A stretch of 64,000 nucleotides of DNA from an uncultured Pseudomonadota bacterium (GTDB taxonomy: Bacteria; Oederibacteriota; Muellerivitia; Muellerivitales; Muellerivitaceae). The stretch's first letter is position 1, and each line of letters begins with the position of its first letter. This document shows, one piece after another, positions 32,234-62,022 of the stretch. The notes beneath the pieces are model-generated. The model was not told where the DNA came from, searched no databases, and saw nothing but the letters and a program-made list of their open reading frames with translations. The position numbers were made by a program, and so were the translations under genes. The stretch covers positions 256,001-320,000 of the forward strand of contig CAVYRH010000005.1 of the NCBI GenBank assembly GCA_963770835.1, in the 5' to 3' direction.

Positions 32234-32296
32234 CCCTTCATCCAAATACCGAACATCGCCTTTCCTCGCCACCCTTTGAAATTGGGGGATTCAAAG

Positions 32297-35200
32297 TTGT
32301 CTACGAAGCCTCAATATCGATTTTCCTTAGCGCGGTTTTTCCTGCCCTTCGCATTTGGCCTTTTTGCCACCTCTCTTCACGCCCAAAGCGCCTCGGTGAC
32401 CGCCTCCACGGCAATAGGGGATGACAGCACCGGTTCCTTAGGCGCGGCCATTACGGCCCTGGACGCCACTTCCAGCGGCGGCAACATTCAAATCACCTTC
32501 CCCAACAACAGTTCCATTTCCTTACTCCAATTCATCGGCAACGGCACCCAGCCCATCACAATGATCAGCCCCAACGGGGGCGTTAGCTTTGGGCTCATCG
32601 GTAACAATGCCAATAACGGGTCCACGAACTACAATTTCACCCAGCTCACCCTGGGCCTCAACGTGGGTTTTAACCTGACGAACTCCGGCCCCACCACCGT
32701 TTCAACGGACACCAATGACAGCGCGGGCTTCAACATCACTTCATTGACCCTGAATTCGGGCTCCCAATTAAGCGTTACCTTCGGCCCCGGGCAAATCGGC
32801 ACTTCCGACGCCAACGGCGCGGTGGGCGGGAACGCTTATGTCACTGTGGGAGGCGCTACTTCCCTCAATGGCGGCACCTTACAACTGCTGGGCGGTACGG
32901 GCGGGCAGGGTGGAGTTAACGGTGGGTCCGGCAGCACGGGCGGAGCGGTCAGCCTAAGCCTGGGACCTCTCAGCGGCAGCGGAACCCTGAATCTCCAGGG
33001 CGGTACGGGCGGCCAGGGTAATTCGGGCGGCGGCTACGCCAACGGCGGCGACGGTGGTTCGGTTCTGGCCTTGATGGGGCCGGTCAGCCTTTCCAATTCC
33101 GCCCTCACGGTGGAGGGCGGCACGGCGGGGGCGGCCCAAAATGGCACGATCAGCAACGGGGGCTCGGGCGGAAGCGCCGGCGTCAGCATGCAATCCCTCT
33201 ATCTAAACGACACTTCCACACTGTTTGCCGGCGGGAATGGGGCGGTGGGTGGGGCAGGCGCCCAAGCCCAGAGCGGACAGAACGGCGGCAACGGCGGTTC
33301 GGGCGGGGCCTTAGGTGTGACCCTGGGCGATTTCACCATGACCGGTTCAAGCTATAGCTTGGGGGCCATTGGCGGTAACGGCGGGGCCGGCGGCGCGGGC
33401 GGGAACAGCAATACGACCACCACCAACGGCAACGGCGGGACTGGCGGCACGGGCGGAACCGGGGGCGGCGCCTTGTTCACGGCGGGGGCGGTTTCCATGG
33501 CCGGAACCAACCTGAGCCTGGAAGTCCTGGGCGGAAACGGCAACAGCGGTGGTAACGGGGGATACGCCAATCCCGACGGGTCCGGCGGCAGTGGTGGTAA
33601 CGCGGGCGATGGCGGGAACTCAGTTTTTGATTCCACCAGCCTGTCCCTCGCTGGCGCCTCCGTAACGGTTCAAGGGGGTGCGGGTGGAAATGGCGGGAAC
33701 GGCAGTACCGGCGGTAGTTGGGACATGGGCTCGAGCTACGCTGGCTTTACGGGTGGACAAGGGGGCCAAGGCGGTAACGGGGGCAGTGCGGGCCTGACAA
33801 CAACCTCCTCCCTTTCCCTGAGGTCGGCCGCAACCCTGACGGTTGTGGGCGGAACCGGGGGCAACGCGGGCCAAGGCGGTTCGGCCGGCAATGGGGATTA
33901 TGGCGCGGACGCCGGCGGCACCGGGGCCAATGGCAACGACAGCGGCGACGGGGGCCAGGGCGGCAATGGCGGCAACAGCTCCATCCCCGTGACGTCGATT
34001 TCATCCGGAACGACAACTATCTCGGATACCTCTCCCGGCCAAACCGGCGGCAACGCGAACCTTCAAACCTCCAATCTTTCCATGGGTGTTTCCGACCAAT
34101 TAACCCTGTCCGGCGGCAACGGGGGGGTGGGGGGGACTCCCGTGACCTCGGTTTCGGCGGGGGTCACCACCATCACGGCTAATTCGGGCGGCCCGGGTGG
34201 CGCAGCGGGTTATTATTCCGCCGGCGCCGGGTCCCCGGACACCAGTGGTTATGTCTCCTCCACAGGCGGTAATGGGGGCAACGGCGGATCAGGAGGCGGA
34301 GGCGGCTTGGGGGGCAATGGCGGCAACGGTGGAAACGCCTCCTTGAGCGCGGGGGCCGTTTCCCTAGGTTCCTACGACCTTTTGGCCGTCACCGGCGGCG
34401 CGGGCGGCATGCCCGTGACCACCGTTTCCTCCTCCGGCGGGCAGACGATCGTGACGGTTTATTCCGGCGGCAACGGCGGCGGCGGTAACGGCGGCAGCGT
34501 GGGGGGAACGGGCAGTTATGGCCGTAACGACGGTAACGGGGGCAACGGAGGGGCGGGCGGCACGGGAGGCTTCGGAGGGGATGGTGGGGCGGGCGGCAAT
34601 GCGTCCATGGCCGTTTCCAGCCTGACCCTCGCCGGGGACGGGGACATGGTGGACGTGACCGGCGGGGCGGGCGGCAATGGCGGGACAGCCGGATCGGGCG
34701 CCCAAGGCGGCTTGGGCGGATCGGATAATGGAGGCGTGGCCAGCTACAACCAAAGCGGCACCAATGGTGACGGGGGCTACGGCGGCAACGGCGGGGGCGG
34801 CGGTTTTGGCGGCGCGGGCGGGATCCTAACCCAAAGCATCAACAACTCAGGAGTCACCACGACGAATGTGGTCTCGGGCGGGAACGCGGCCTTGACCGTA
34901 TCCGGAACCCTTTTAATGCAGGGGTCGGGCGACGAGGTGAATGTGGCGGGCGGAGCCGGGGGAACGGGAGGGCTGGCCGGCAATGGAAACCAGGGCGCCA
35001 GCGGCGGCATGGGCGCCTCCAGCGATAACGCCGGTACCAGCGCACCCGGCGGAAACGGCGGCTACGGCGGGTTCGGCGGCTTTGGCGGCAATGGCGGCAA
35101 CGCAGGCGTGAGCCTGGGGATGCTTGACATGGCTGGGACCAATGAAATCTTCAATGTGACCGGAGGGGCGGGCGGAAACGGCGGCTTTGGCGGCGAGGGC

Positions 35201-38200
35201 GGCAACGGCGGCCCCGGAGGACAGGGAGCCGATGGCGGCAGCTGCAGCGGATGCTCGGGTGGCCAGGGCGGCAACAGCGGATACGGTTCAGCCGTCGCTT
35301 ATTTCAACAGCCAATTCAACTTCACCTCGGGTGGTTTTGGGGGCTTTGGTGGAAACGGCGGGAACGCCGGACTGACCGTGGGTTCGCTGTCCATGGGCGT
35401 ATCGGGCGACATCCTCAACGTGGCCGGCGGGGCTGGGGGCGGCGGCGGCTTCGCCGGAGCCGGCGGCAACGCCGTGACGGCCGGCGCGGGGGGCACGGGC
35501 CAAAATGGGGCGCCGGGCGGCAACGGCGCGCCGGGCGGCAATGGAGGAGCAGGCGGCGGGGGTGGAAACGGCGGCGCTGCAACCCTGGTGGCGGGCTTAG
35601 CCACAATGGTTTCGGGCACGGCGGTTTCGGTTACCGGCGGGAATGGAGGCGCGGGAGGCGGCGGCGGGAATGGGGGCAACGGCGGCACGGGCGGCGTGGG
35701 CGCCTCAGGTTCTTCCGGCTTAAACGGCGGTTTCGGCGGCAACGGCGGCGCGGGCAACAACGGCGGCGGAGCCGGCATGGGTGGCGAAGGCGGCATGGGC
35801 GGCAACGCCTCGGTCAGCCTGGGTTCCCTTAATATGGCCTCCAACTCGACCTTTGCGGTTCTGGGCGGAAACGGCGGCTACGGCGGCATCAGCGGTTCGG
35901 GCGGGGAAGGCGGCAACGGCGCCAGCGGCGGCAACGGCGGCGACGGATACCAGATTGTTACCACGGTCATCAGCGACACAGTGGCCATCATCGGCTTTAT
36001 TCCAACTGCGGGCCTATCGGCTGGGATCGTGGACCTGACCCTGGGCATCTACGTTCAGGCTGAGAACCAGGAACAACTTGAGGTCGTCCAGCCACCCCCC
36101 AACAGCGGGCTTCCTGATTACAACCCGGTTTCCCTGCAGGGCGGCAACGGCGGCAATGGCGGCAACGCCTTCTATAACGGAGTCACCTTGAACATGGCCT
36201 CGGGGGACAATTTCACCGTCGCGGGAGGTTACGGCTGGAACGGCAGCAACAACGGTTTCGGGGGTTCGGACGGAGTGACCGGAACCAACGGTTCGAACGG
36301 CAACAACATCGGCGGCGGTTTCGGCGGCGGGGCGGGGCCCGGGGGTGTCGGCGGTTCGTCGGGCGGGGGCGGCACCGCGGGCAGTGGCGGAAACGGCGGC
36401 TATGGCGGCAATGCCTGGGTGACTCTGGGCGCTGTGACCGAACTTGGCAACATGGGGGGCCAATCCACGACCTTCCTCGTGGGAGGCGGCGCGGGCGGCG
36501 TCGGCGGCAGTGGAATCTTCGGCCAGGGCTCGACGATTACGGTGGGCACGGGCGGCAACGGCGGCGCGGGCGGCAATGCGGCGGTTTCCATTAATTCCAT
36601 GGCCCTCGTCGGGGCCCAGGCCTGGGTGACGGGGGGAGCGGGCGGCCAAGGCGGCGCCAGCGTCAGCGAAAGCGGCGGGACCGGCGGATTGGGCGGCAAC
36701 GCGGCCATGACAGTGGGCTCCCTTTTCTCGGAAGCCAGTACGGTAGGTATCCTGGGTGGCGCGGGCGGTACGGCGGGCGCGGACGGCGGAAGCGGCGCGG
36801 CGGGTGGCGCGGCCAGCCTGATGGCGGGCGGCGTGACGCTGGTTTCCGGTTCCACGACCCTGGTGAACGGCACCGTGAACACCTATACCTCCCTTTTGAA
36901 CGTCCAGGGTGGAAAAGGCGGAAGTGTCCTGGCCGGGCAGGGGGGCCTCAGTGGGGCCAACGGCGGGAACGCCTTTGCCCAGATCGGCACCCTGGCGGTG
37001 CAGAATTCCACGGTTACTGTGGCGGGAGGGATGGGGGGCAACGCCGACAACGGCGGCATCAACGGCACGGGAGGCTCGGGCGGCGGGGCCACCCTGGTTT
37101 CCTCTAACCTCAACATCTTGTCGGGCTCCATCCTGGTGGCCGGCGGGGCGGGGGGAACGGGCGGCGGCGCGGGTGCGGGCGGCAATGGCGGCAACGCGAA
37201 TTGGGGCGGTGGCGGCAATGTGACCCTTTCCGGCCCTGTTAGCGTGATGGGCGGCCTAGGCGGCAACGGCGGCCAGGGCAATTCGGGCGCGTCGGGCAGC
37301 GGCGGTGCGGGCGGAAACGGCGGAAGTGTGGCCTTGGACATGCAGAACCTGACCATTGTCTCCGGAAGCCTCCTGAACATCGCCGGGGGCGGAGGCGGCA
37401 CGGACGATTATTCCAGCCAAAATTACGGCGGCGGAGCAGGCAACGGTGGAAGCGGCAGCCTGACTATTACCGGCACCCTGAGCCTCTCCAGCGGCGCCAC
37501 CTTGGACGTCTCGGCCGGCGAAGCGGGCCTGGCCGTGGGCAGCGACCCGGCGGGCACGAACGGCTCGGCCAGTGTTTCCATCGGCAACATCCTGGGCAAC
37601 GGCACCATCGACATCACGGGCCAGGGTCAATCCACCTTCCAGATCGGCGGTTTCGGGGGCTTCGGCGGGACGCTGGAGGGGACGACCCAAATGGACGTCA
37701 ACGGCGCCTACGTGACCTTGACCGGCAACAATACCTATAGCGGCGGCACCAGCATCTCCAACGGGGGAATCCTGACCGTTGCGGACGGTAATTCCTTGGG
37801 CGCGGCTGGGACGACAATCGACTTAAATGTGGGCACCCTGAGGATCGGGTCCGATTCCAATGTCAGCCAGCCCCTGGACATGGTGAACCGGGGTTTCGTG
37901 GACGCCATGGGCAACGCCGTCACCTTGTCCGGCGCCATCAGCGGCCCGGGCGCGCTCTGGCTTTATGGGAATGAGTACAGCGGCATTTATGGAGGCCCGG
38001 GGACCATCGCCCTGACGGGCGACAATACCTTCAGCGGCGGGCTGACAGTGAACATGTACACGACCTTGAACGCGGTCAACGACAATAATTTCGGGGCCGC
38101 TTCCAACCTGTTGGACATGATGGGCCAGTCCACCCTGCAGGCCGGGGCAAATTTCGATGTAAACCACGTGATTTCTCTCGACGAGGGCAGCGCCAGCCTG

Positions 38201-40534
38201 GACACCCAAAATTACGGCGTCACCTTGAGCGGGGCGGTGAGCACGGACAGCCCCAGCTATTACGGCACCCTCTATAAGAACGGCACCGGCACCCTCTACC
38301 TGCGGGGGAGCACCGGGCCCCTGGTCGGCTACCAGGTCAACGGGGGCTTCCTGAATATCCTCAACGATTCGGCCCTGGGAGTGAGCGAGCTGGCCGTCAA
38401 CCTCAACGGCGGCGGACTGCAATACGGCGACAGCACCTCTTCCAGCGTGACGGTCTATTTGAACCCCGGCAGCTCCGATTTCCTGGACACACAGGCCTAC
38501 AGCGTCACCTTGAACGGCCAGATCACCATCGATGTGACCGGCTCCACCGAAGCCTTGAGCAAGATGGGGTCCGGCACCCTTCTCTTGAACGGGCAGGCCA
38601 ACTTCACCGGCCCCTTGAGCATCCTGGCGGGGACCCTGCAACAGGGTTCGGTGACGGCGTTGGGAAATGCCTATGACCTGTTCGTCAATACGGGAGCGGT
38701 CTTTGACTTGAACCACTTCAACGGGACCCTCGGTTCATTGAGCGGAGGCGGTGCGGTTTCCATGGAAACGGCTGGCCTGGCCTTGGGGGATTTCAACTCG
38801 ACCACCTTCGGCGGGGTGATTTCGGGCACCGGCGGGCTGACCAAGCAGGGGACGGGCACCGAGGTTTTGGACGGAATCAACACCTACACGGGTGGAACGA
38901 CGGTATTGGCGGGCAACTTGGAGGTGGGGGATGTCAATGACCCCGGCGCGGTGATCGCGGGCGGGGTGACTGTGGCCGCAAACGGCACCCTTTCCGGCCA
39001 TGGAACCGTCCTTGGCGCCGTCAATAATAACGGGACCGTGTCGCCGGGAGGTACGGTGGGTGTGCTGACGGTGGGCAATTACAACCAGACAGCCAACGGA
39101 AGGCTGGACATGGAAATCTCACCTAGCCAAGGAAGCCTCCTCGACGTGACAGGGACCGCCCATTTGGGCGGGGCCCTGACCGTGACCGCCGACCCCGGTG
39201 GTTTTGGCGTCCGGGACAGCTATGTGCTGCTCACTTCCGGATCGTCCCTGCTTGGAACCTTCTCCTCATTCGGCGACAATCTTTCCGGAATGACGCCCAC
39301 GCTCTCCTACGGGACCGATGCGGTGACGCTGACCCTGACCCGGCTGAACGCCTTTTCGCCTTATGTCCAGACGCCAAACCAGGGATTGGTGGCCGATGCG
39401 CTCAACCAGAACATCCCCACGGCCCAGGGGGAGCTTTTGGCAAAGATGGGTGAGATAGTCAACCTTCCCTCGGGGCAATCACAGGTTTTAAATGAACTTC
39501 AAGGGCAGATTTACACGGCGCTGCCCAACGTGATGCTCAACAACTTGCAGTTCGAGGACAACCTATTGTTCTCGAGACTAGACGGCTCGGTGGGCCCGTC
39601 GATGAACCCAGCGCAAGCCGCCATGGTGGGAAGCATCCTGTCCGGAGACGCGAACCAGATGGGGCAGGCCGCCAACGCGGCTCCCCTGGCCTCGGTCAAG
39701 GCCCAGGGCCTTTGGATCCAGAACACCGACAACTTCGGGTCGGTGGCGGGGAACAGTGAAGTGACGGGCTTCAATCAGTCCGATTATGGCTTCCTGGGCG
39801 GCTATGACACCGAACTCCTGCCGGGCCTCACCGGCGGGCTGATGGGAGGATATGTCCACACCAACGTAACGGCCCAGGATGGCAGCGGCCAGACGGGGGT
39901 GGACGGAGTCCAATTCGGGGTCTATGGAAACCAAACTTTGGATAAGTTCGACATTCGTTTAGTGGCGGGGTATGGGACAAACCACTTCACCACGAACCGC
40001 ACCATTTCCATCGGCAGCGACCTAAACCTGGTTCAAGGAACCACCGACGGCAGCCAGATCATGGCGGCCCTGCAGGGGGATTACCGGATGGAGGTTTCAG
40101 GGGTTTCGGTGAAACCCCTCGTGGGAATGGAATACGCCCATCTCGGCGAGAACGCCTTTACGGAGACAGGTTCCAGCGGCTTGAACCTGGCCATGCCCAG
40201 CCAGTCCTACGATTCCTTGAGGCCCTATATCGGCGTGAACGGGGCCAAGGCCTATGGCTTGGGCGGGGACATGAAATTGACGCCGATGGTGAACCTCTCC
40301 GCCAGTGAGGAATTGATAAACAACGCAGGGCAGTTCCAGGCGGCCTTGGGCGGCGCGCCCGGAAACAGCTTCACGGTGACGGGAATCACACCTTCGGCCA
40401 CCCTTTTCGGAGTCGGAGCGGGCCTGGACCTAGCCTTCGGCGCCCCAGTCAATCTTTTTGCCTCTTATAAAGGATATTTCAGCGGGACAGAATCCCTGAA
40501 TACCTTCAGCGGTGGATTAAGCCTAAGTTTCTAA
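32297..40534 (+). CDS. giant glycine-rich autotransporter (type Va) adhesin
   Basis: signal peptide ending LHAQ, GGxGG passenger, PATR-like repeats (LTKQGTGT.VL.G.NTYTGGT), C-terminal beta-barrel ending LSLSF. Confidence 0.92.
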   Translation: MSTKPQYRFSLARFFLPFAFGLFATSLHAQSASVTASTAIGDDSTGSLGAAITALDATSSGGNIQITFPNNSSISLLQFIGNGTQPITMISPNGGVSFGLIGNNANNGSTNYNFTQLTLGLNVGFNLTNSGPTTVSTDTNDSAGFNITSLTLNSGSQLSVTFGPGQIGTSDANGAVGGNAYVTVGGATSLNGGTLQLLGGTGGQGGVNGGSGSTGGAVSLSLGPLSGSGTLNLQGGTGGQGNSGGGYANGGDGGSVLALMGPVSLSNSALTVEGGTAGAAQNGTISNGGSGGSAGVSMQSLYLNDTSTLFAGGNGAVGGAGAQAQSGQNGGNGGSGGALGVTLGDFTMTGSSYSLGAIGGNGGAGGAGGNSNTTTTNGNGGTGGTGGTGGGALFTAGAVSMAGTNLSLEVLGGNGNSGGNGGYANPDGSGGSGGNAGDGGNSVFDSTSLSLAGASVTVQGGAGGNGGNGSTGGSWDMGSSYAGFTGGQGGQGGNGGSAGLTTTSSLSLRSAATLTVVGGTGGNAGQGGSAGNGDYGADAGGTGANGNDSGDGGQGGNGGNSSIPVTSISSGTTTISDTSPGQTGGNANLQTSNLSMGVSDQLTLSGGNGGVGGTPVTSVSAGVTTITANSGGPGGAAGYYSAGAGSPDTSGYVSSTGGNGGNGGSGGGGGLGGNGGNGGNASLSAGAVSLGSYDLLAVTGGAGGMPVTTVSSSGGQTIVTVYSGGNGGGGNGGSVGGTGSYGRNDGNGGNGGAGGTGGFGGDGGAGGNASMAVSSLTLAGDGDMVDVTGGAGGNGGTAGSGAQGGLGGSDNGGVASYNQSGTNGDGGYGGNGGGGGFGGAGGILTQSINNSGVTTTNVVSGGNAALTVSGTLLMQGSGDEVNVAGGAGGTGGLAGNGNQGASGGMGASSDNAGTSAPGGNGGYGGFGGFGGNGGNAGVSLGMLDMAGTNEIFNVTGGAGGNGGFGGEGGNGGPGGQGADGGSCSGCSGGQGGNSGYGSAVAYFNSQFNFTSGGFGGFGGNGGNAGLTVGSLSMGVSGDILNVAGGAGGGGGFAGAGGNAVTAGAGGTGQNGAPGGNGAPGGNGGAGGGGGNGGAATLVAGLATMVSGTAVSVTGGNGGAGGGGGNGGNGGTGGVGASGSSGLNGGFGGNGGAGNNGGGAGMGGEGGMGGNASVSLGSLNMASNSTFAVLGGNGGYGGISGSGGEGGNGASGGNGGDGYQIVTTVISDTVAIIGFIPTAGLSAGIVDLTLGIYVQAENQEQLEVVQPPPNSGLPDYNPVSLQGGNGGNGGNAFYNGVTLNMASGDNFTVAGGYGWNGSNNGFGGSDGVTGTNGSNGNNIGGGFGGGAGPGGVGGSSGGGGTAGSGGNGGYGGNAWVTLGAVTELGNMGGQSTTFLVGGGAGGVGGSGIFGQGSTITVGTGGNGGAGGNAAVSINSMALVGAQAWVTGGAGGQGGASVSESGGTGGLGGNAAMTVGSLFSEASTVGILGGAGGTAGADGGSGAAGGAASLMAGGVTLVSGSTTLVNGTVNTYTSLLNVQGGKGGSVLAGQGGLSGANGGNAFAQIGTLAVQNSTVTVAGGMGGNADNGGINGTGGSGGGATLVSSNLNILSGSILVAGGAGGTGGGAGAGGNGGNANWGGGGNVTLSGPVSVMGGLGGNGGQGNSGASGSGGAGGNGGSVALDMQNLTIVSGSLLNIAGGGGGTDDYSSQNYGGGAGNGGSGSLTITGTLSLSSGATLDVSAGEAGLAVGSDPAGTNGSASVSIGNILGNGTIDITGQGQSTFQIGGFGGFGGTLEGTTQMDVNGAYVTLTGNNTYSGGTSISNGGILTVADGNSLGAAGTTIDLNVGTLRIGSDSNVSQPLDMVNRGFVDAMGNAVTLSGAISGPGALWLYGNEYSGIYGGPGTIALTGDNTFSGGLTVNMYTTLNAVNDNNFGAASNLLDMMGQSTLQAGANFDVNHVISLDEGSASLDTQNYGVTLSGAVSTDSPSYYGTLYKNGTGTLYLRGSTGPLVGYQVNGGFLNILNDSALGVSELAVNLNGGGLQYGDSTSSSVTVYLNPGSSDFLDTQAYSVTLNGQITIDVTGSTEALSKMGSGTLLLNGQANFTGPLSILAGTLQQGSVTALGNAYDLFVNTGAVFDLNHFNGTLGSLSGGGAVSMETAGLALGDFNSTTFGGVISGTGGLTKQGTGTEVLDGINTYTGGTTVLAGNLEVGDVNDPGAVIAGGVTVAANGTLSGHGTVLGAVNNNGTVSPGGTVGVLTVGNYNQTANGRLDMEISPSQGSLLDVTGTAHLGGALTVTADPGGFGVRDSYVLLTSGSSLLGTFSSFGDNLSGMTPTLSYGTDAVTLTLTRLNAFSPYVQTPNQGLVADALNQNIPTAQGELLAKMGEIVNLPSGQSQVLNELQGQIYTALPNVMLNNLQFEDNLLFSRLDGSVGPSMNPAQAAMVGSILSGDANQMGQAANAAPLASVKAQGLWIQNTDNFGSVAGNSEVTGFNQSDYGFLGGYDTELLPGLTGGLMGGYVHTNVTAQDGSGQTGVDGVQFGVYGNQTLDKFDIRLVAGYGTNHFTTNRTISIGSDLNLVQGTTDGSQIMAALQGDYRMEVSGVSVKPLVGMEYAHLGENAFTETGSSGLNLAMPSQSYDSLRPYIGVNGAKAYGLGGDMKLTPMVNLSASEELINNAGQFQAALGGAPGNSFTVTGITPSATLFGVGAGLDLAFGAPVNLFASYKGYFSGTESLNTFSGGLSLSF

Positions 40535-49927: not shown

Positions 49928-49980
49928 TTGTCCACGGCGGGGAACCCCGCACCCCAGAGCGGGGCAGTGGCATTGGACAA
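49928..49980 (+). repeat. cassette-boundary site 1 (with 23-bp hairpin insert)
   Basis: TTGTCCA CGGCGGGGAA[CCCCGCACCCCAGAGCGGGGCAG]TGGCAT TGGACAA. Confidence 0.75.
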
Positions 49981-50008
49981 ACAAATTAACCAAATGAAGG
50001 AGGCGATT

Positions 50009-50491
50009 GTGCGGAGATCGAAATCGATAGGGAAGATCAGTTTGGCCCTGGGTCTAATTTTATTGGGCATGAATTATTTGGGCTGCTCAAGCTCTGATAA
50101 CGAAGCCGACAGCAAGGCCTACGTGGATAAAGTTGCGCCGGTCATATTCAAGGATTGGGATACGACTCTTATTTTGGCGGAAGCCGATCCGGATTTGAAG
50201 AATTACGCTGACACAAATAAAGAAGTCTTCGAGAAAGGTATCCAATCCTTCAAGGATGCGGTCGGTTCCATGAAAGCTTACAAAGGCGCAACCCTTTTGG
50301 GAAAACCCACCGAGGGACCGGACCATACAGTTGTTGCCGCTTATTCCGTTGAGGCTGATTTTGAGAAAGGGACCAGTAAGATTATGCTGACCACTACCCT
50401 CCGTGATGGGAAATGGCAGATGGGCCTTTTTAACCTAGATCCGCAGGCTGAGCTACAAAGGATGACAAAGGCCATGACCCCGAACCCCTAA
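50009..50491 (+). CDS. hypothetical lipoprotein
   Basis: AAGGAGG then GTG start, lipobox YLGC, Y..EADFEKG C-terminal strands. Confidence 0.75.
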   Translation: MRRSKSIGKISLALGLILLGMNYLGCSSSDNEADSKAYVDKVAPVIFKDWDTTLILAEADPDLKNYADTNKEVFEKGIQSFKDAVGSMKAYKGATLLGKPTEGPDHTVVAAYSVEADFEKGTSKIMLTTTLRDGKWQMGLFNLDPQAELQRMTKAMTPNP

Positions 50492-50556
50492 ACAACCGGA
50501 TGAGCCGGGAGTTTCTGCGGCCTTGCTAAACCATTAGTCTTTTGCTGACGAAAACT

Positions 50557-50585
50557 TTGTCCACGACGGGGACCCATCGTGGACA
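50557..50585 (+). repeat. cassette-boundary site 2 (last base displaced to 51386 by the intron)
   Basis: TTGTCCA CGACGGGGACCCATCG TGGACA|intron|A. Confidence 0.85.
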
Positions 50586-51385
50586 TCGTGCCAGAGGAGG
50601 GTTTGCAGAGCCAGCAGGTGAGGGAGTAGGCCGATGAGGGTCAACCCAAGTCCTGACCAGGTAATCACCAGAGAGCCTGGAAGTCAGCCCCCGGCGTAGG
50701 ATCGAGAGGTCCTGCCCGAAACGGGGTCATAAACCTCATTTAGTGAGGGAACAATCCAGCAGTCCGCAACATCAAGTGAATCCTGCCGCTTCGTGAATGG
50801 GACACCGAAAGGTGCAAGGGGATGCCGAGCCGCGTGTCTACTGGCGAAGGCCACGATCCCGCTGAAGAATCTGGTAGCAAGCGGGGCAAGTCCTCCGGAG
50901 TATGGGGAACGGAATGTTGGAAAGGCTATGCAAGCAAGCTGGGAGATCCTACCCGCCAAAAGACTTGCCGCTATAAGGCTAAAACCGAAAAGAGGCAAGG
51001 GTGGGAGGAAGTCGGAGGGGGTCACAGTACCGATGAAGGGGTGGACAACAAAACCACCCTGAGGGAAGGACCCCTGCTTCAACCATGTGTCTCAAAGAAG
51101 GTAGGCGCTGGAGCATGCCCCAAAAGGGCCAACAACTCTGTAGTACCAAAGCGCGAGGCCTTTGACAACAGGCACTATGCCGAGCGGCCAAGGGGGAAGT
51201 CGAACCTGTAAAGCCGCCGGAGGAGAGGTTGTCGGAAAGCCGTATGATCGAAAAGGTCACGTACGGTTTGACGAGGGGGCGCTGGAAACGAAGTGATGAG
51301 GGAACCTCGTTGGGGCACGGAACCGGAAACGGGGAAACAGATCAAGGAACCCTCTGCACACCATCGCGCCAGTGCTCTACTCTGC
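50586..51385 (+). mobile_element. ORF-less group II intron (IIB, bacterial class E-like), 800 nt
   Basis: domain V AAGCCGTATGATCGAAAAGGTCACGTACGGTTT (51237-51269, AGC triad, AC bulge); long DVI with bulged A 7 nt from the end; DIII; DIV closed by CAACC/GGTTG with a degenerate IEP start (KARGL*QQALCRAAK). Confidence 0.92.
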
Positions 51386-51462
51386 ACCCCGGCCCCGCAA
51401 GGGGGATTGCGAAGCTTGGCGGATGGATACACAATCGTATATACAGAAAAGGAGGTTTTCCA

Positions 51463-51696
51463 ATGAAAATTTTAATTGTCCTTCCCGATGAATTGGGGGC
51501 GGAACTAAAGCATTCCATTCCCGCGCGCCAAAGAAGCCGGTTTGTCGCGGAAGCGGTTGAAAAACAACTCCGGTCGATGAAATTCAAGAAAGTCCTTAAG
51601 AAAACAGCCGGAACATGGACGGATAAAAACCATCCTGATATGACAACCCAAGCCGGTATCAACCGCCACTTGGGCCGAATCCGGGGATGGAAATAA
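51463..51696 (+). CDS. VapB-like antitoxin (ribbon-helix-helix)
   Basis: AAGGAGG RBS; MKILIVLPDEL...RSRFVAEAV; directly upstream of a PIN toxin. Confidence 0.8.
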   Translation: MKILIVLPDELGAELKHSIPARQRSRFVAEAVEKQLRSMKFKKVLKKTAGTWTDKNHPDMTTQAGINRHLGRIRGWK

Positions 51697-51705
51697 GCCA
51701 ATCCC

Positions 51706-52095
51706 ATGGCCTACCTGATTGATTCCGACGTCATTATTTGGGCCCTTCGTGGGCGCCCGTCGATAGTGAAACTCTTATTAAACCTCTCCGAGGAAGATTC
51801 CATAGCCTGTTCAGCCATAAATGTTCTGGAGGTAGAAGTCGGAGCCAAACCCCCTGAAATGAAAGCGGTCCGCCAACATTTGGGAAGCTACGAAATACTT
51901 CCGGTTCTCCCCTCAACAGCCCAAAAAGCAGCTGAAATTCTTCGTTCGTCTTCCCGCAAACCTCACCCGGGTGAATGGGCTGACGCGGTTATCGCCGCCA
52001 CGGCCCTACTTAATGATTTAACGTTGGTCACCTTTAACACCCGTCATTACCAATACCCAGGGCTTTCACTTCATACAATGAAGGACTTAATTTAG
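51706..52095 (+). CDS. vapC: VapC-family PIN domain toxin
   Basis: YLIDSDVII, S.I...E, DAVIAATA and LVTFN.RH motifs. Confidence 0.92.
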   Translation: MAYLIDSDVIIWALRGRPSIVKLLLNLSEEDSIACSAINVLEVEVGAKPPEMKAVRQHLGSYEILPVLPSTAQKAAEILRSSSRKPHPGEWADAVIAATALLNDLTLVTFNTRHYQYPGLSLHTMKDLI

Positions 52096-52116: not shown

Positions 52117-52210
52117 TTGTCCACGACCTGTCTCCCGACCTGTCCCCCGGAACTTTAGTGCAGGGGGAAGTTCAATGAACGTAGGGAGTACGGGGACCCA
52201 TCAAGGGCCA
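52117..52210 (+). repeat. cassette-boundary site 3 (with nested 64-bp insert)
   Basis: TTGTCCA CG[insert 52126-52189]ACGGGGACCCATCA AGGGCCA. Confidence 0.8.
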
Positions 52211-52608: not shown

Positions 52609-52638
52609 TTGTCCACGGCGGGGAGGCTTATTCGACAG
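52609..52638 (+). repeat. cassette-boundary site 4
   Basis: TTGTCCA CGGCGGGGAGGCTTAT TCGACAG. Confidence 0.8.
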
Positions 52639-52975: not shown

Positions 52976-54267
52976 GGGCACCTCTAAAAATTCTGTTTGA
53001 AGGCTTTACGGTCACCTCAAACCAGTTTGCAACCCTCAACCAAAGGAGTTCGTGGAAATTTTTGGCCCGGAATCTCCCTTCGGCTACTCCCAGAACCTTT
53101 CCTTAGCCCCCAAAGTCTTTAAAATCTATGCGTTCACTGCCTCCGGACGCATTCGTCCCATTAAGTACGTAAATCGCTGCATGTTGTAAGCCAGGTTCCG
53201 CATTCCTATCTTCATCCGGGCCCTCACCTTGCCCACCACCCTCAACCAGTTTCCACCCATCGCCGTTTCCATGTGCCCGAACACATGCTCGACTCTCGCC
53301 CGAACCTTGGACCGCATCTTGTTCAACTTTTCCTGGAACTCCGTCATGGGATGATTCCGATTCGACTTGTAATGAATCTGGTTGTTATATCGCCTGCGCT
53401 TCAAGGTCTTGTTCTTCTTCTGTGACCGGTATGCGCTGTCTGCCCACACCTTCTTGCGGTTCTCCACGTCCAACAACTCCTCGAAAACCTCCCGGTCGGG
53501 TACCGAAGCCGCCGTCACCTCAAACTTCCGGACCAGCTTGTGTTTCTTATCCACGTTGATATGGTTCTTGTACCCGTAGTGATTCACGCCGTTTTTTTGC
53601 ACCCATCTCGCATCCACGTCTTTTTGCCTCATCTTATCGGTATCCCCCTTCCACTCCTGAGGTGTTTCCCCCTTCTTGATCTGGCCGTTTTCGTCTTTGG
53701 TGTTCCTCTGCCGGGGCACTTCCACTATCGAAGCATCGATGATCTGCCCTTCCTGGGCCTTCAGCCCGACCCGATCCAGGTGCCGGTTGAATTTCCCGAA
53801 CAACTGGTCAATCCAGCCGCCTTGGGCCAGCTTGTTGCGGTATAACCAGATGGTCTTGGCATCCGGCACATCCTTATCCATACCCAGCCCCAAAAACCTC
53901 ATGAAACTCAGCCGGTCCTGGATATGGAATTGTGTCCTTTCGTCCGCCAGGTTGTATAGGGCCTGTAAAACTAGCACCTTGAACATTAGTACTTCATCGT
54001 ACGGGGTACGCCCCGCCTCGCTTTTGCGTTCCTTATCGCGTAATGCCTTGCGCAACATACTGCGGAAATCCTCCCAGGGCACTACTCGGTTCAAGGCTTC
54101 CAGCGGGTCCCCCATTTCATCCAGGGATTTCAAGCGGTCTTGAAGGTCGAAGAATCCGGTTTGGCCCATTGCGGCACCTCGTTCAAGGATTTTTCAGCGT
54201 TTTCACGCGCTGTTTTCTCCTTGTACCTCCTTCACTTCGTCTCTACAACCAATTTTTAGACGTGCCC
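52976..54267 (-). mobile_element. complete IS5-family insertion sequence, 1292 bp
   Basis: 17-bp IRs GGGCAC(C/G)TCTAAAAATT and 4-bp target duplication TTAT. Confidence 0.96.
53126..54169 (-). CDS. IS5 family DDE transposase
   Basis: DRLSFMRFLG, IIDAS, YGYKNH, WADSAY and RARVEHVFG motifs. Confidence 0.96.
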   Translation of the reverse strand: MGQTGFFDLQDRLKSLDEMGDPLEALNRVVPWEDFRSMLRKALRDKERKSEAGRTPYDEVLMFKVLVLQALYNLADERTQFHIQDRLSFMRFLGLGMDKDVPDAKTIWLYRNKLAQGGWIDQLFGKFNRHLDRVGLKAQEGQIIDASIVEVPRQRNTKDENGQIKKGETPQEWKGDTDKMRQKDVDARWVQKNGVNHYGYKNHINVDKKHKLVRKFEVTAASVPDREVFEELLDVENRKKVWADSAYRSQKKNKTLKRRRYNNQIHYKSNRNHPMTEFQEKLNKMRSKVRARVEHVFGHMETAMGGNWLRVVGKVRARMKIGMRNLAYNMQRFTYLMGRMRPEAVNA

Positions 54268-59026: not shown

Positions 59027-59056
59027 ATGTCCACGACGGAGACCCCAAGTGGGCAC
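59027..59056 (+). repeat. cassette-boundary site 5
   Basis: ATGTCCA CGACGGAGACCCCAAG TGGGCAC. Confidence 0.8.
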
Positions 59057-61129: not shown

Positions 61130-61159
61130 TTGTCCACGGCGGGGACCCGAATTGGACAA
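61130..61159 (+). repeat. cassette-boundary site 6 (perfect consensus)
   Basis: TTGTCCA CGGCGGGGACCCGAAT TGGACAA. Confidence 0.88.
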
Positions 61160-61272: not shown

Positions 61273-61506
61273 ATGAATCTCGCCGTCAAAGTACCTGTGG
61301 ACCTTGAAAATCTCATCCAACAGCTTTCCGTGAAAGACAAAATCAAGCTGGCCCACGAGCTCGAAAGGCAGACCCGGCGTGAACGTTGGACCCCCCTTCT
61401 CAACCGCATCCAAAAAAGGACCGCAAAGAACCGTTTGAGCGAGAAGGAAATAGTGGCTTTGGTCAAGGAAACCCGCAGGGAATTACGTGGCAAGAGCCGT
61501 CATTGA
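61273..61506 (+). CDS. putative antitoxin
   Basis: small helical ORF overlapping the PIN toxin; SEKEI...VKE.R motif. Confidence 0.75.
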   Translation: MNLAVKVPVDLENLIQQLSVKDKIKLAHELERQTRRERWTPLLNRIQKRTAKNRLSEKEIVALVKETRRELRGKSRH

Positions 61507-61879
61507 CACCAATATATTAATCAGCATTCTTCTTGGAAGCCGAAATTGTCTCGCCGTTCGAGGGGCTTTCTTGGATGGACTTTTCGAGATAATCACCTCA
61601 CCCGAACTCGTCACCGAGTTTAATGTCGCCTGCCGGAAACCCAAAATCTCAGCATTCGTCAATCCCCATGACATCTTGAATACCCTTGAGCTTCTTAATA
61701 GTGATGCTGAATGGATTTCCCCCGATATCAAAGTTGCCGCCAGCCGCGACTCCAAAGACAATCCTGTTTTGGAATGCGCTGTCGCCGGTCAGGCCGACTT
61801 TATTATTACAGGCGACAAGGATTTGCTTGACCTCAAGTCTTTCCGTGGAATTAAAATTATCACCCCCCGACAATTTTGA
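61487..61879 (+). CDS. PIN-family toxin (PIN_3 type)
   Basis: VIDTNILIS, RDSKDN.VLECA, IITGDKDLL and ITP..F motifs. Confidence 0.92.
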   Translation: MARAVIDTNILISILLGSRNCLAVRGAFLDGLFEIITSPELVTEFNVACRKPKISAFVNPHDILNTLELLNSDAEWISPDIKVAASRDSKDNPVLECAVAGQADFIITGDKDLLDLKSFRGIKIITPRQF

Positions 61880-61906: not shown

Positions 61907-62022
61907 CTGTCCACGACCTGTCTCCCGACCTGTCCCCCGAAACTTTAGTGCAGGGGAAGTTCAATGAACGTAGGGAGTACGGGGACCCGTTCGACAAGCT
62001 CATGGCAGGCCTCGTCGGACAG
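61907..62022 (+). repeat. cassette-boundary site 7 (nested 63-bp insert plus 23-bp insert)
   Basis: CTGTCCA CG[61916-61978]ACGGGGACCC[61989-62011]TCGT CGGACAG. Confidence 0.8.

Follow-up and report, generated by a model that had tools for sequence, protein, structure and literature searches.

A precedent for ORF-less group II introns that share one deletion and are mobilised in trans is known from Thermosynechococcus elongatus, in which ORF-less TeI3 copies with one deletion, shared breakpoints and ORF remnants are described as having multiplied in the genome with RT-bearing relatives acting in trans (PMC2882425); ORF-less introns have been described as rare in bacteria (PMC4424553). The IIC-attC introns, such as S.ma.I2, are specialised on the recombination site of cassette arrays; they are reported to use a 3-4 bp IBS1 and a required hairpin, with no EBS2, and to lie inside attC, in its bottom strand and opposite to cassette transcription (PMC7923331, PMC4424553). 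Introns of the En-less class F / g1-g4 are described as about 1.98 kb long, with an RT-X IEP of about 430 aa carrying YADD (PMC3552965), and PMC8643678 and PMC12584367 treat other intron lineages.

The intron analysed here, located in a 64,000-nt stretch of DNA (the window), joins known kinds, the trans-mobilised ORF-less intron and the occupant of a cassette-site niche, though it fills that niche by another mechanism and its ends are unusual. What is most surprising is the covariation of these ends and the system that is targeted. Like TeI3, it shows the shared breakpoints of a single deletion, retains remnants of the ORF and has multiplied in a genome with RT-bearing relatives; unlike TeI3, it belongs to an En-less F/g-like lineage, targets a repeated cassette site and not introns or IS, and has non-canonical U1/G(n-1) ends. 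It shares with the IIC-attC introns the specialisation on a cassette-array recombination site, and differs from them in having a 7-nt EBS1 together with an EBS2, in being ORF-less, and in lying on the same strand as the cassette ORFs, just outside a site that is not attC. The RT-bearing members of the family have the IEP type, YADD motif and length described for classes F/g1-g4, and the intron falls into the same Rfam D1D4-4 family as Ni.ha.I1 (g3, former class F), whose IEP was the nearest curated one at 40% among four references (two g1, one g2 and one g3). Unlike those classes, the RT of this family formed its own clade; its identity to the four curated references was just 35-40%, and it grouped with none of them. 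The class E-like affinity suggested by the sequence-only reading is not supported by this comparison, whose references were of g1, g2 and g3.

The ORF-less, IIB-like intron is 800 nt long and occupies positions 50586-51385 of the plus strand. TGGACA at 50580-50585 is followed by TCGTGCC, which opens the intron at 50586, and CTCTACTCTGC closes it at 51385, after which comes A. Group II hallmarks (the D1 core, the domain V catalytic triad and the domain VI bulged A) are present, and the Rfam models D1D4-4 (50642-50774; 57.8 bits, E 4e-10) and Intron_gpII (51235-51385; 41 bits) both matched where the sequence-only reading had placed the intron. Domain V, with an AGC triad, was located at 51235-51269 by Rfam and folding (folding z = -4.1), and folding outlined a long domain VI at 51273-51382 in which the branch A bulges out at 51379, seven bases from the end. 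The alpha element (50667-50672) and its partner alpha' (50870-50875), placed by alignment, covary among relatives as CCAG/CUGG, CCUG/CAGG and CCCG/CGGG. A promoter scan gave 3 against 1.6 in shuffles, which is not above the shuffled level. The loop GTGTCTAC at 50834-50841, read directly from the sequence, had been proposed to hold an EBS1 that pairs with TGGACA through one G:U. We placed delta G at 50834 and EBS1, UGUCUAC, at 50835-50841, where it forms a 7-nt pairing with GUGGACA that includes one G:U. Over 35 distinct intron/target pairs, 241 of the 245 EBS1-IBS1 positions (-1 to -7) pair, which exceeds chance and bears the proposal out; the pair that closes the EBS1 loop varies (G-U, G-C, C-G, U-G and A-U), and one relative with EBS1 UUUACAC is inserted after GAGUAAA.

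Two independent tests fixed the intron boundaries. One contig of DNA run X4 (n = 1, depth 2.8, 10 letters on the left side) carries an intron-less allele in which ATCGTGGACA directly precedes 51386 (TGGACA|ACCCC). In the copy within a GH43 gene (C4:389639-390439 of the source genome, G000), excision with the same ends restores an open frame and one extra base gives a frameshift. Because the empty allele and the GH43 frame agree, the intron is taken to start with UCGUG and end with UGC, ends that are precise and show no duplication; a 5' extension before GUGCC and a TGGAC|A junction were both tried and ruled out by the same two tests. These results confirm that 50586-51385 is a complete group II intron with correctly placed boundaries, as had been read from the letters. 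The GH43 copy lies in sense orientation, so that the gene would need splicing. A 3'-flank search found no empty alleles within the source genome, and no spliced joint was found in RNA run X12, which yielded 3 short contigs.

The boundary consensus of group II introns is GUGYG...AY. UCGUG...GC departs from this consensus and retains G3-Y4-G5, the final C and the branch spacing; B.th.I3 (g2) likewise begins GCGUG. We listed 64 5' ends, and for 36 of these the 3' end was found automatically: 26 begin with U1 and end in UGC, and 10 begin with G1 and end in UAC. One copy added by hand (GUGUG with UAC) raised the second class to 11 and the total to 37, and none of the 37 was a mixed U1/A(n-1) or G1/G(n-1) copy. 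The 37 copies collapse to 16 D1-D3 types (nine U1/G(n-1) and seven G1/A(n-1)), and both end states occur within both RT subfamilies. The 5' tree requires five changes of end state (at least two of them on starred branches) and the 3' tree four (at least three); independent pairs on well-supported branches numbered just 2 and 3, with p values of 0.5 and 0.25 that are not significant. Three relatives (L112, L122 and L139), whose 3' ends are absent, have C as the first base. In a distant Leptospira plasmid intron (L141, L144 and L145; RT 52% identical), the first bases look to be UCCCG and the last are UGC or UAC. With its U start judged by the position of EBS1, n-1 is G in two records and A in one, and because this intron has both, the safer rule is that G(n-1) is seen only without G1. 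The first and penultimate bases of group II introns are described as interacting (PMC4238363, PMC3669008), and in RmInt1 a G at n-1 is reported to be one of the changes most harmful to the second step (PMC4238363). The observed association suggests that U1/G(n-1) may be a matched pair replacing the usual G1/A(n-1) contact, and is likely a natural compensation of it. We found no description of this pair in the literature; the class-specific boundaries treated in PMC4028801 may bear on UCGUG.

The intron follows a 28-bp palindromic cassette site at 50558-50585 (plus strand), TGTCCACGACGGG-GA-CCCATCGTGGACA in a 13-2-13 arrangement, of which the right half is the intron target. The genome-wide unit, TGTCCACGACGGG-GA-CCCGTCGTGGACA, occurs in arrays in 88 copies with at most 7 mismatches, a count that leaves out sites split by a second intron. 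The site was present in 25 of 30 genomes of the family, in the one genome (1/1) of the same order and in none of 29 genomes (0/29) that belong to other families within the phylum; the control gave zero matches. The conserved unit ends in TGGACA, which in 78 empty sites is followed by A (45 sites), G (30) or C (3); since this base varies, the intron must be placed directly after the site, which its insertion does not disrupt, and the +1 base becomes T. The sequence-only reading had put the intron within the right arm, which gave way to an insertion adjoining the arm; its perfect arm TGGACAA holds at this locus and not genome-wide, and its claim of specialisation on an abundant, conserved site stands on the 88 copies and the family distribution.

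The site is part of an array in the window, all on the plus strand. Upstream lie a long site variant with an internal insertion (49929-49979) and a single-gene cassette (49980-50557) whose ORF ends at 50491 and has no family match. Downstream, a cassette at 51463-52095 holds an antitoxin-like ORF (51463-51696, no family match) and a VapC-like PIN gene (51706-52095), followed by a site split by a 69-nt hairpin insert (52118-52203), a site with 7 mismatches (52610-52637) and more sites at 59028, 61131 and 61908. The 69-nt hairpin-rich insert occupies the same point of three sites (52127-52195, 61917-61984 and G000:C11:105392) and may be a miniature element. We also observed a second toxin-antitoxin cassette, with a VapB15-like gene and a PIN protein, at 61273-61879 between the sites at 61131 and 61908; an IS5-family transposase on the minus strand (53126-54169) within the array region; and a 2,752-aa glycine-rich ORF (32276-40534) that looks autotransporter-like by eye.

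In integrons, attC is made of RYYYAAC/GTTRRRY boxes, with the crossover at the 3' end. The 28-bp palindrome shows neither, and IntI, considered as the cassette enzyme, was rejected since none of 31 genomes (0/31) scored above the TIGR02249 cut-off. The arrays resemble sedentary chromosomal integrons and CALINs in consisting of co-oriented single-gene cassettes with toxin-antitoxin pairs that are shuffled between arrays, and, as in CALINs, many arrays lie far from any recombinase. Unlike integrons, they have no IntI and are built on a perfect 28-bp palindrome with a central crossover and no attC R boxes, and the enzyme proposed for them, a serine recombinase, is encoded at the downstream end and runs convergently to the array. 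The longest ORF lies on the site strand in all 38 short inter-site segments examined. One 863-nt cassette recurs at four places with differing neighbours, and in 4/4 groups the right arm moves with the downstream cassette, placing the crossover between site positions 6 and 19. We found no paper on a cassette system without integron parts.

The sole resolvase-family gene of the source genome encodes a 275-aa serine recombinase (C17:12078-12905), and just 14 nt separate its stop codon from the final site of an array; its neighbours are ardC- and radC-like genes, and it may belong to a mobile unit of its own. The protein has the PF00239 catalytic and PF07508 recombinase domains and lacks the zinc-ribbon family PF13408, as do its nearest 18-19 homologues (275-283 aa). 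For all nine loci of this short type (eight genomes, some fragments), a site lies no more than about 50 nt from the end, in one case an intron-split site recognised by eye, compared with 0/9 loci of other homologues that adjoin a site. The domain order and the central crossover dinucleotide resemble those described for the large serine integrases LI/A118 and TP901-1, and the recombinase domain of LI integrase is reported to have a 13-bp contact area (PMC3783163), which fits the 13-bp site arms. Unlike the large serine integrases, the 275-aa protein has neither the zinc-ribbon nor the coiled-coil region, so it should be free of attP/attB asymmetry, and loss of these distal domains might permit recombination of identical sites. 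From the observed association we consider it probable that the 28-bp unit is the crossover site of a cassette-shuffling serine recombinase, with catalysis by this enzyme presumed.

The alternative with most standing is that the 28-bp units are tyrosine/Xer-type 11-6-11 sites, or terminator/REP-like repeats, which we regard as doubtful. It draws on the presence of a single Xer-like gene, on a minus strand that scores terminator-like at this site, and on the short recombinase not being found in five site-rich genomes (G012, G018, G023, G025 and G030). Against it, G14 is kept in 88/88 sites and A15 in 86/88 while position 16 varies (74/88), which fits a 2-bp core and not a 6-bp one and leaves the 11-6-11 reading weaker than 13-2-13. 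The identical cassettes with different neighbours and breakpoints in the site, and the 9/9 against 0/9 association of the short recombinase, also argue against it. Six tyrosine integrases of about 370 aa, considered as cassette enzymes, were rejected, being located at tRNAs.

The 28-bp cassette site has been colonised repeatedly in the source genome, which contains 14 ORF-less 5' ends of the intron: nine uninterrupted identical 800-nt copies, a single 801-nt copy, two that are complete but interrupted by IS110 and two cut by contig ends. Ten copies (the nine uninterrupted 800-nt ones and one IS-split) have no differences, a degree of identity that repeat assembly may have raised artificially, and all complete copies differ in their flanks on both sides. 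Because there are 14 copies, ten of them without a difference, the spread appears recent. In run X2 the intron had a depth of about 53 compared with 3.5-6 on the flanks, with no alternative letters in the intron.

The earlier description of an ORF-less intron with an RT stub in DIV was upheld by alignment to RT-bearing relatives. Intron positions 1-610 align at 91% to an intact RT intron of genome G027 and then skip to its 3' end, and DIV retains a frameshifted remnant of the RT N-terminus, the start of the RT ORF, at 51115-51195 (plus strand, ATG at 51115). About 1.2 kb is missing after this stub. The deletion junction is identical in other ORF-less relatives and common to five ORF-less introns from different sources; since the shared junction is sometimes paired with a different D1 type, intron halves recombine. 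Mobility had been expected to need an IEP in trans, and RT-encoding relatives are indeed present in the source genome: three are 92% identical in D1-D3, all split by the same IS110 near codon 7, and three more distant ones (73-78%) are intact. Close intron relatives occur in seven of the 30 family genomes. In G027 a lone ORF-less copy is accompanied by 10 close RT copies that are intact, and G010 has both close RT and ORF-less copies; a search of genome contigs with the RT gave a single locus, identical with G010:C7. G002 (98% complete) and G021 have ORF-less copies, but a close RT was found in neither. The ORF-less intron presumably spread by using an RT-bearing relative in trans.

We think it very unlikely that the copies spread as DNA (with cassettes or by gene conversion) or are an assembly artefact, with the intron a dead remnant. 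Mosaic relatives do show recombination between intron halves, but different flanks on both sides of all complete copies speak against DNA-level spread, and the depth ratio is independent of assembly. In favour of a dead remnant, the closest helpers are broken and minimum-energy folding leaves EBS1 closed, the EBS1 hairpin resting on comparison (energy folding of the EBS1 region and of DIV was uninformative, z of -0.1 and -0.3); against it, D5 and D6 are intact, and the ectopic GH43 copy has exact splice ends and an EBS-matching target.

At the local site IBS1 spans -1 to -7 and IBS2 spans -9 to -13. EBS2, AUGGG at 50797-50801 (plus strand), pairs with CCCAU at exon positions -13 to -9, with compensatory changes in five relative types, and the EBS2:IBS2 combinations track the variable arm (AUGGG:CCCAU, ACGG:CCGU, AAGGG:CCCUU, CUGGG:CCCAG, CAGGG:CCCUG and GUGUC:GACAC). 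Sites with a match to EBS2 are favoured by the ORF-less copies, 13 of 14 of which have R,T at -10,-9 compared with 40 of 78 empty sites (p 0.003). The probable EBS3, assigned by position, is the U at 50901 (plus strand) of an invariant G-U-A, and would pair with the 3'-exon A. The first 3'-exon base is A at 17 of 18 filled family targets in the source genome against 28 of 53 among the empty sites that have no more than 4 mismatches (p 0.0014); U50901 is invariant and shows no covariation.

Homologous introns did not sit, as a rule, in unrelated targets, a possibility weighed in the sequence-only reading. Among 28 real metagenome insertions (30 pattern matches, from which L116 and L138 were dropped as non-introns), 22 follow a full site, three follow the right arm only, two lie at unrelated targets with matching EBS changes and one (L125) has too short a flank; of the relatives' insertions, 11/14 follow a full site and three the right arm. 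The left arm is absent at C4:389639, C26:878013, L113 and L117, and at four filled sites it is displaced by a 1.9-kb intron.

It is highly improbable that the palindrome is targeted as a single-stranded hairpin through EBS1 only, as in IIC-attC introns. The full palindrome precedes most insertions in both sets and a hairpin of 12 pairs can form from the site, but EBS2 covaries with the target, insertions occur with the left arm absent or displaced, and the hairpin stem would hide both IBS1 and IBS2. Recognition thus appears, from these pairings, to be ordinary IIB-type linear pairing, unlike the hairpin use of IIC-attC introns. The analogy with attC introns drawn at the outset survives as an ecological one; as a mechanism it fails on the covarying EBS2 and the palindrome-free targets. 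The site is itself not attC, and IntI was lacking among the genomes searched.

The sites and the introns have other tenants, a second intron and an IS110, which escaped the sequence-only reading, as did the U1/G(n-1) ends and the burst of copies. A second intron of 1,941 nt, in 12 copies (e.g. G000:C3:1721-3661), has an RT with FADD that groups with B.th.I3 (g2) at 100/100 support; it inserts after site position 11 in 10 cases, two copies are ectopic, and four sites with it also carry the ORF-less intron. The idea that introns help to build cassettes by copying the site onto new genes, and do not only parasitise it, has a model in IIC-attC introns (PMC7923331) and fits two intron lineages tied to the site and evident recombination between intron copies, but we give it very little credence, since close intron relatives occur in far fewer family genomes than the sites do and no intermediate was seen. 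An IS110 element of 1,523 nt is present in six identical copies in the source genome (contigs C2, C3, C11, C20 and C26), all at the same DIV position; it breaks all three closest RT copies, and its target at 51136-51137 (plus strand), occupied in 6 other intron copies, is empty in this one. ORF-less copies may serve as decoys for IS110. Sister introns (G000:C2:234144 and C19:427462) target TGACACGnATATGACA, a repeat with 15 matches (control 3); TGACACGnATATGACA repeats mark the 3' ends of four tyrosine integrases in tRNA islands and also lie near tRNAs, and are possibly integrase arm-type sites.

Taken as a parasite of the cassette site, the intron would be transcribed along with the cassette array, excised as a lariat and, with a reverse transcriptase borrowed from a related RT-bearing intron, would reverse splice into single-stranded DNA right after the 28-bp site. 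Recognition is linear, through a 7-nt EBS1, a 5-nt EBS2 and probably a one-base EBS3, as covariation and target bias show, and the site would offer a safe, renewable niche of about 90 intergenic copies left intact by insertion. We hold it highly likely that this is a non-autonomous group II retroelement with linear, EBS-guided insertion after a cassette site. We lean, with modest confidence, towards the larger proposal of an independent integron-like capture system, with a serine recombinase trimmed for symmetric 13-2-13 sites, a three-level chain of parasites and a repeated U1/G(n-1) swap.

The U1/G(n-1) ends would supply a compensatory pair that has arisen repeatedly in nature at the first-penultimate contact, so far known mainly from mutants, and would thereby allow a direct test of the contact geometry. 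Here an ORF-less intron outnumbers its helpers and would show that introns can also reach cassette recombination sites by base pairing, as a second route of colonisation, and its target points to a gene-cassette system without integron parts. If the larger proposal is true, these bacteria would harbor a parasite chain in which two intron lineages occupy different parts of one cassette site, an ORF-less freeloader lives on its RT-bearing helper, and an IS110 strikes freeloader and helper alike.
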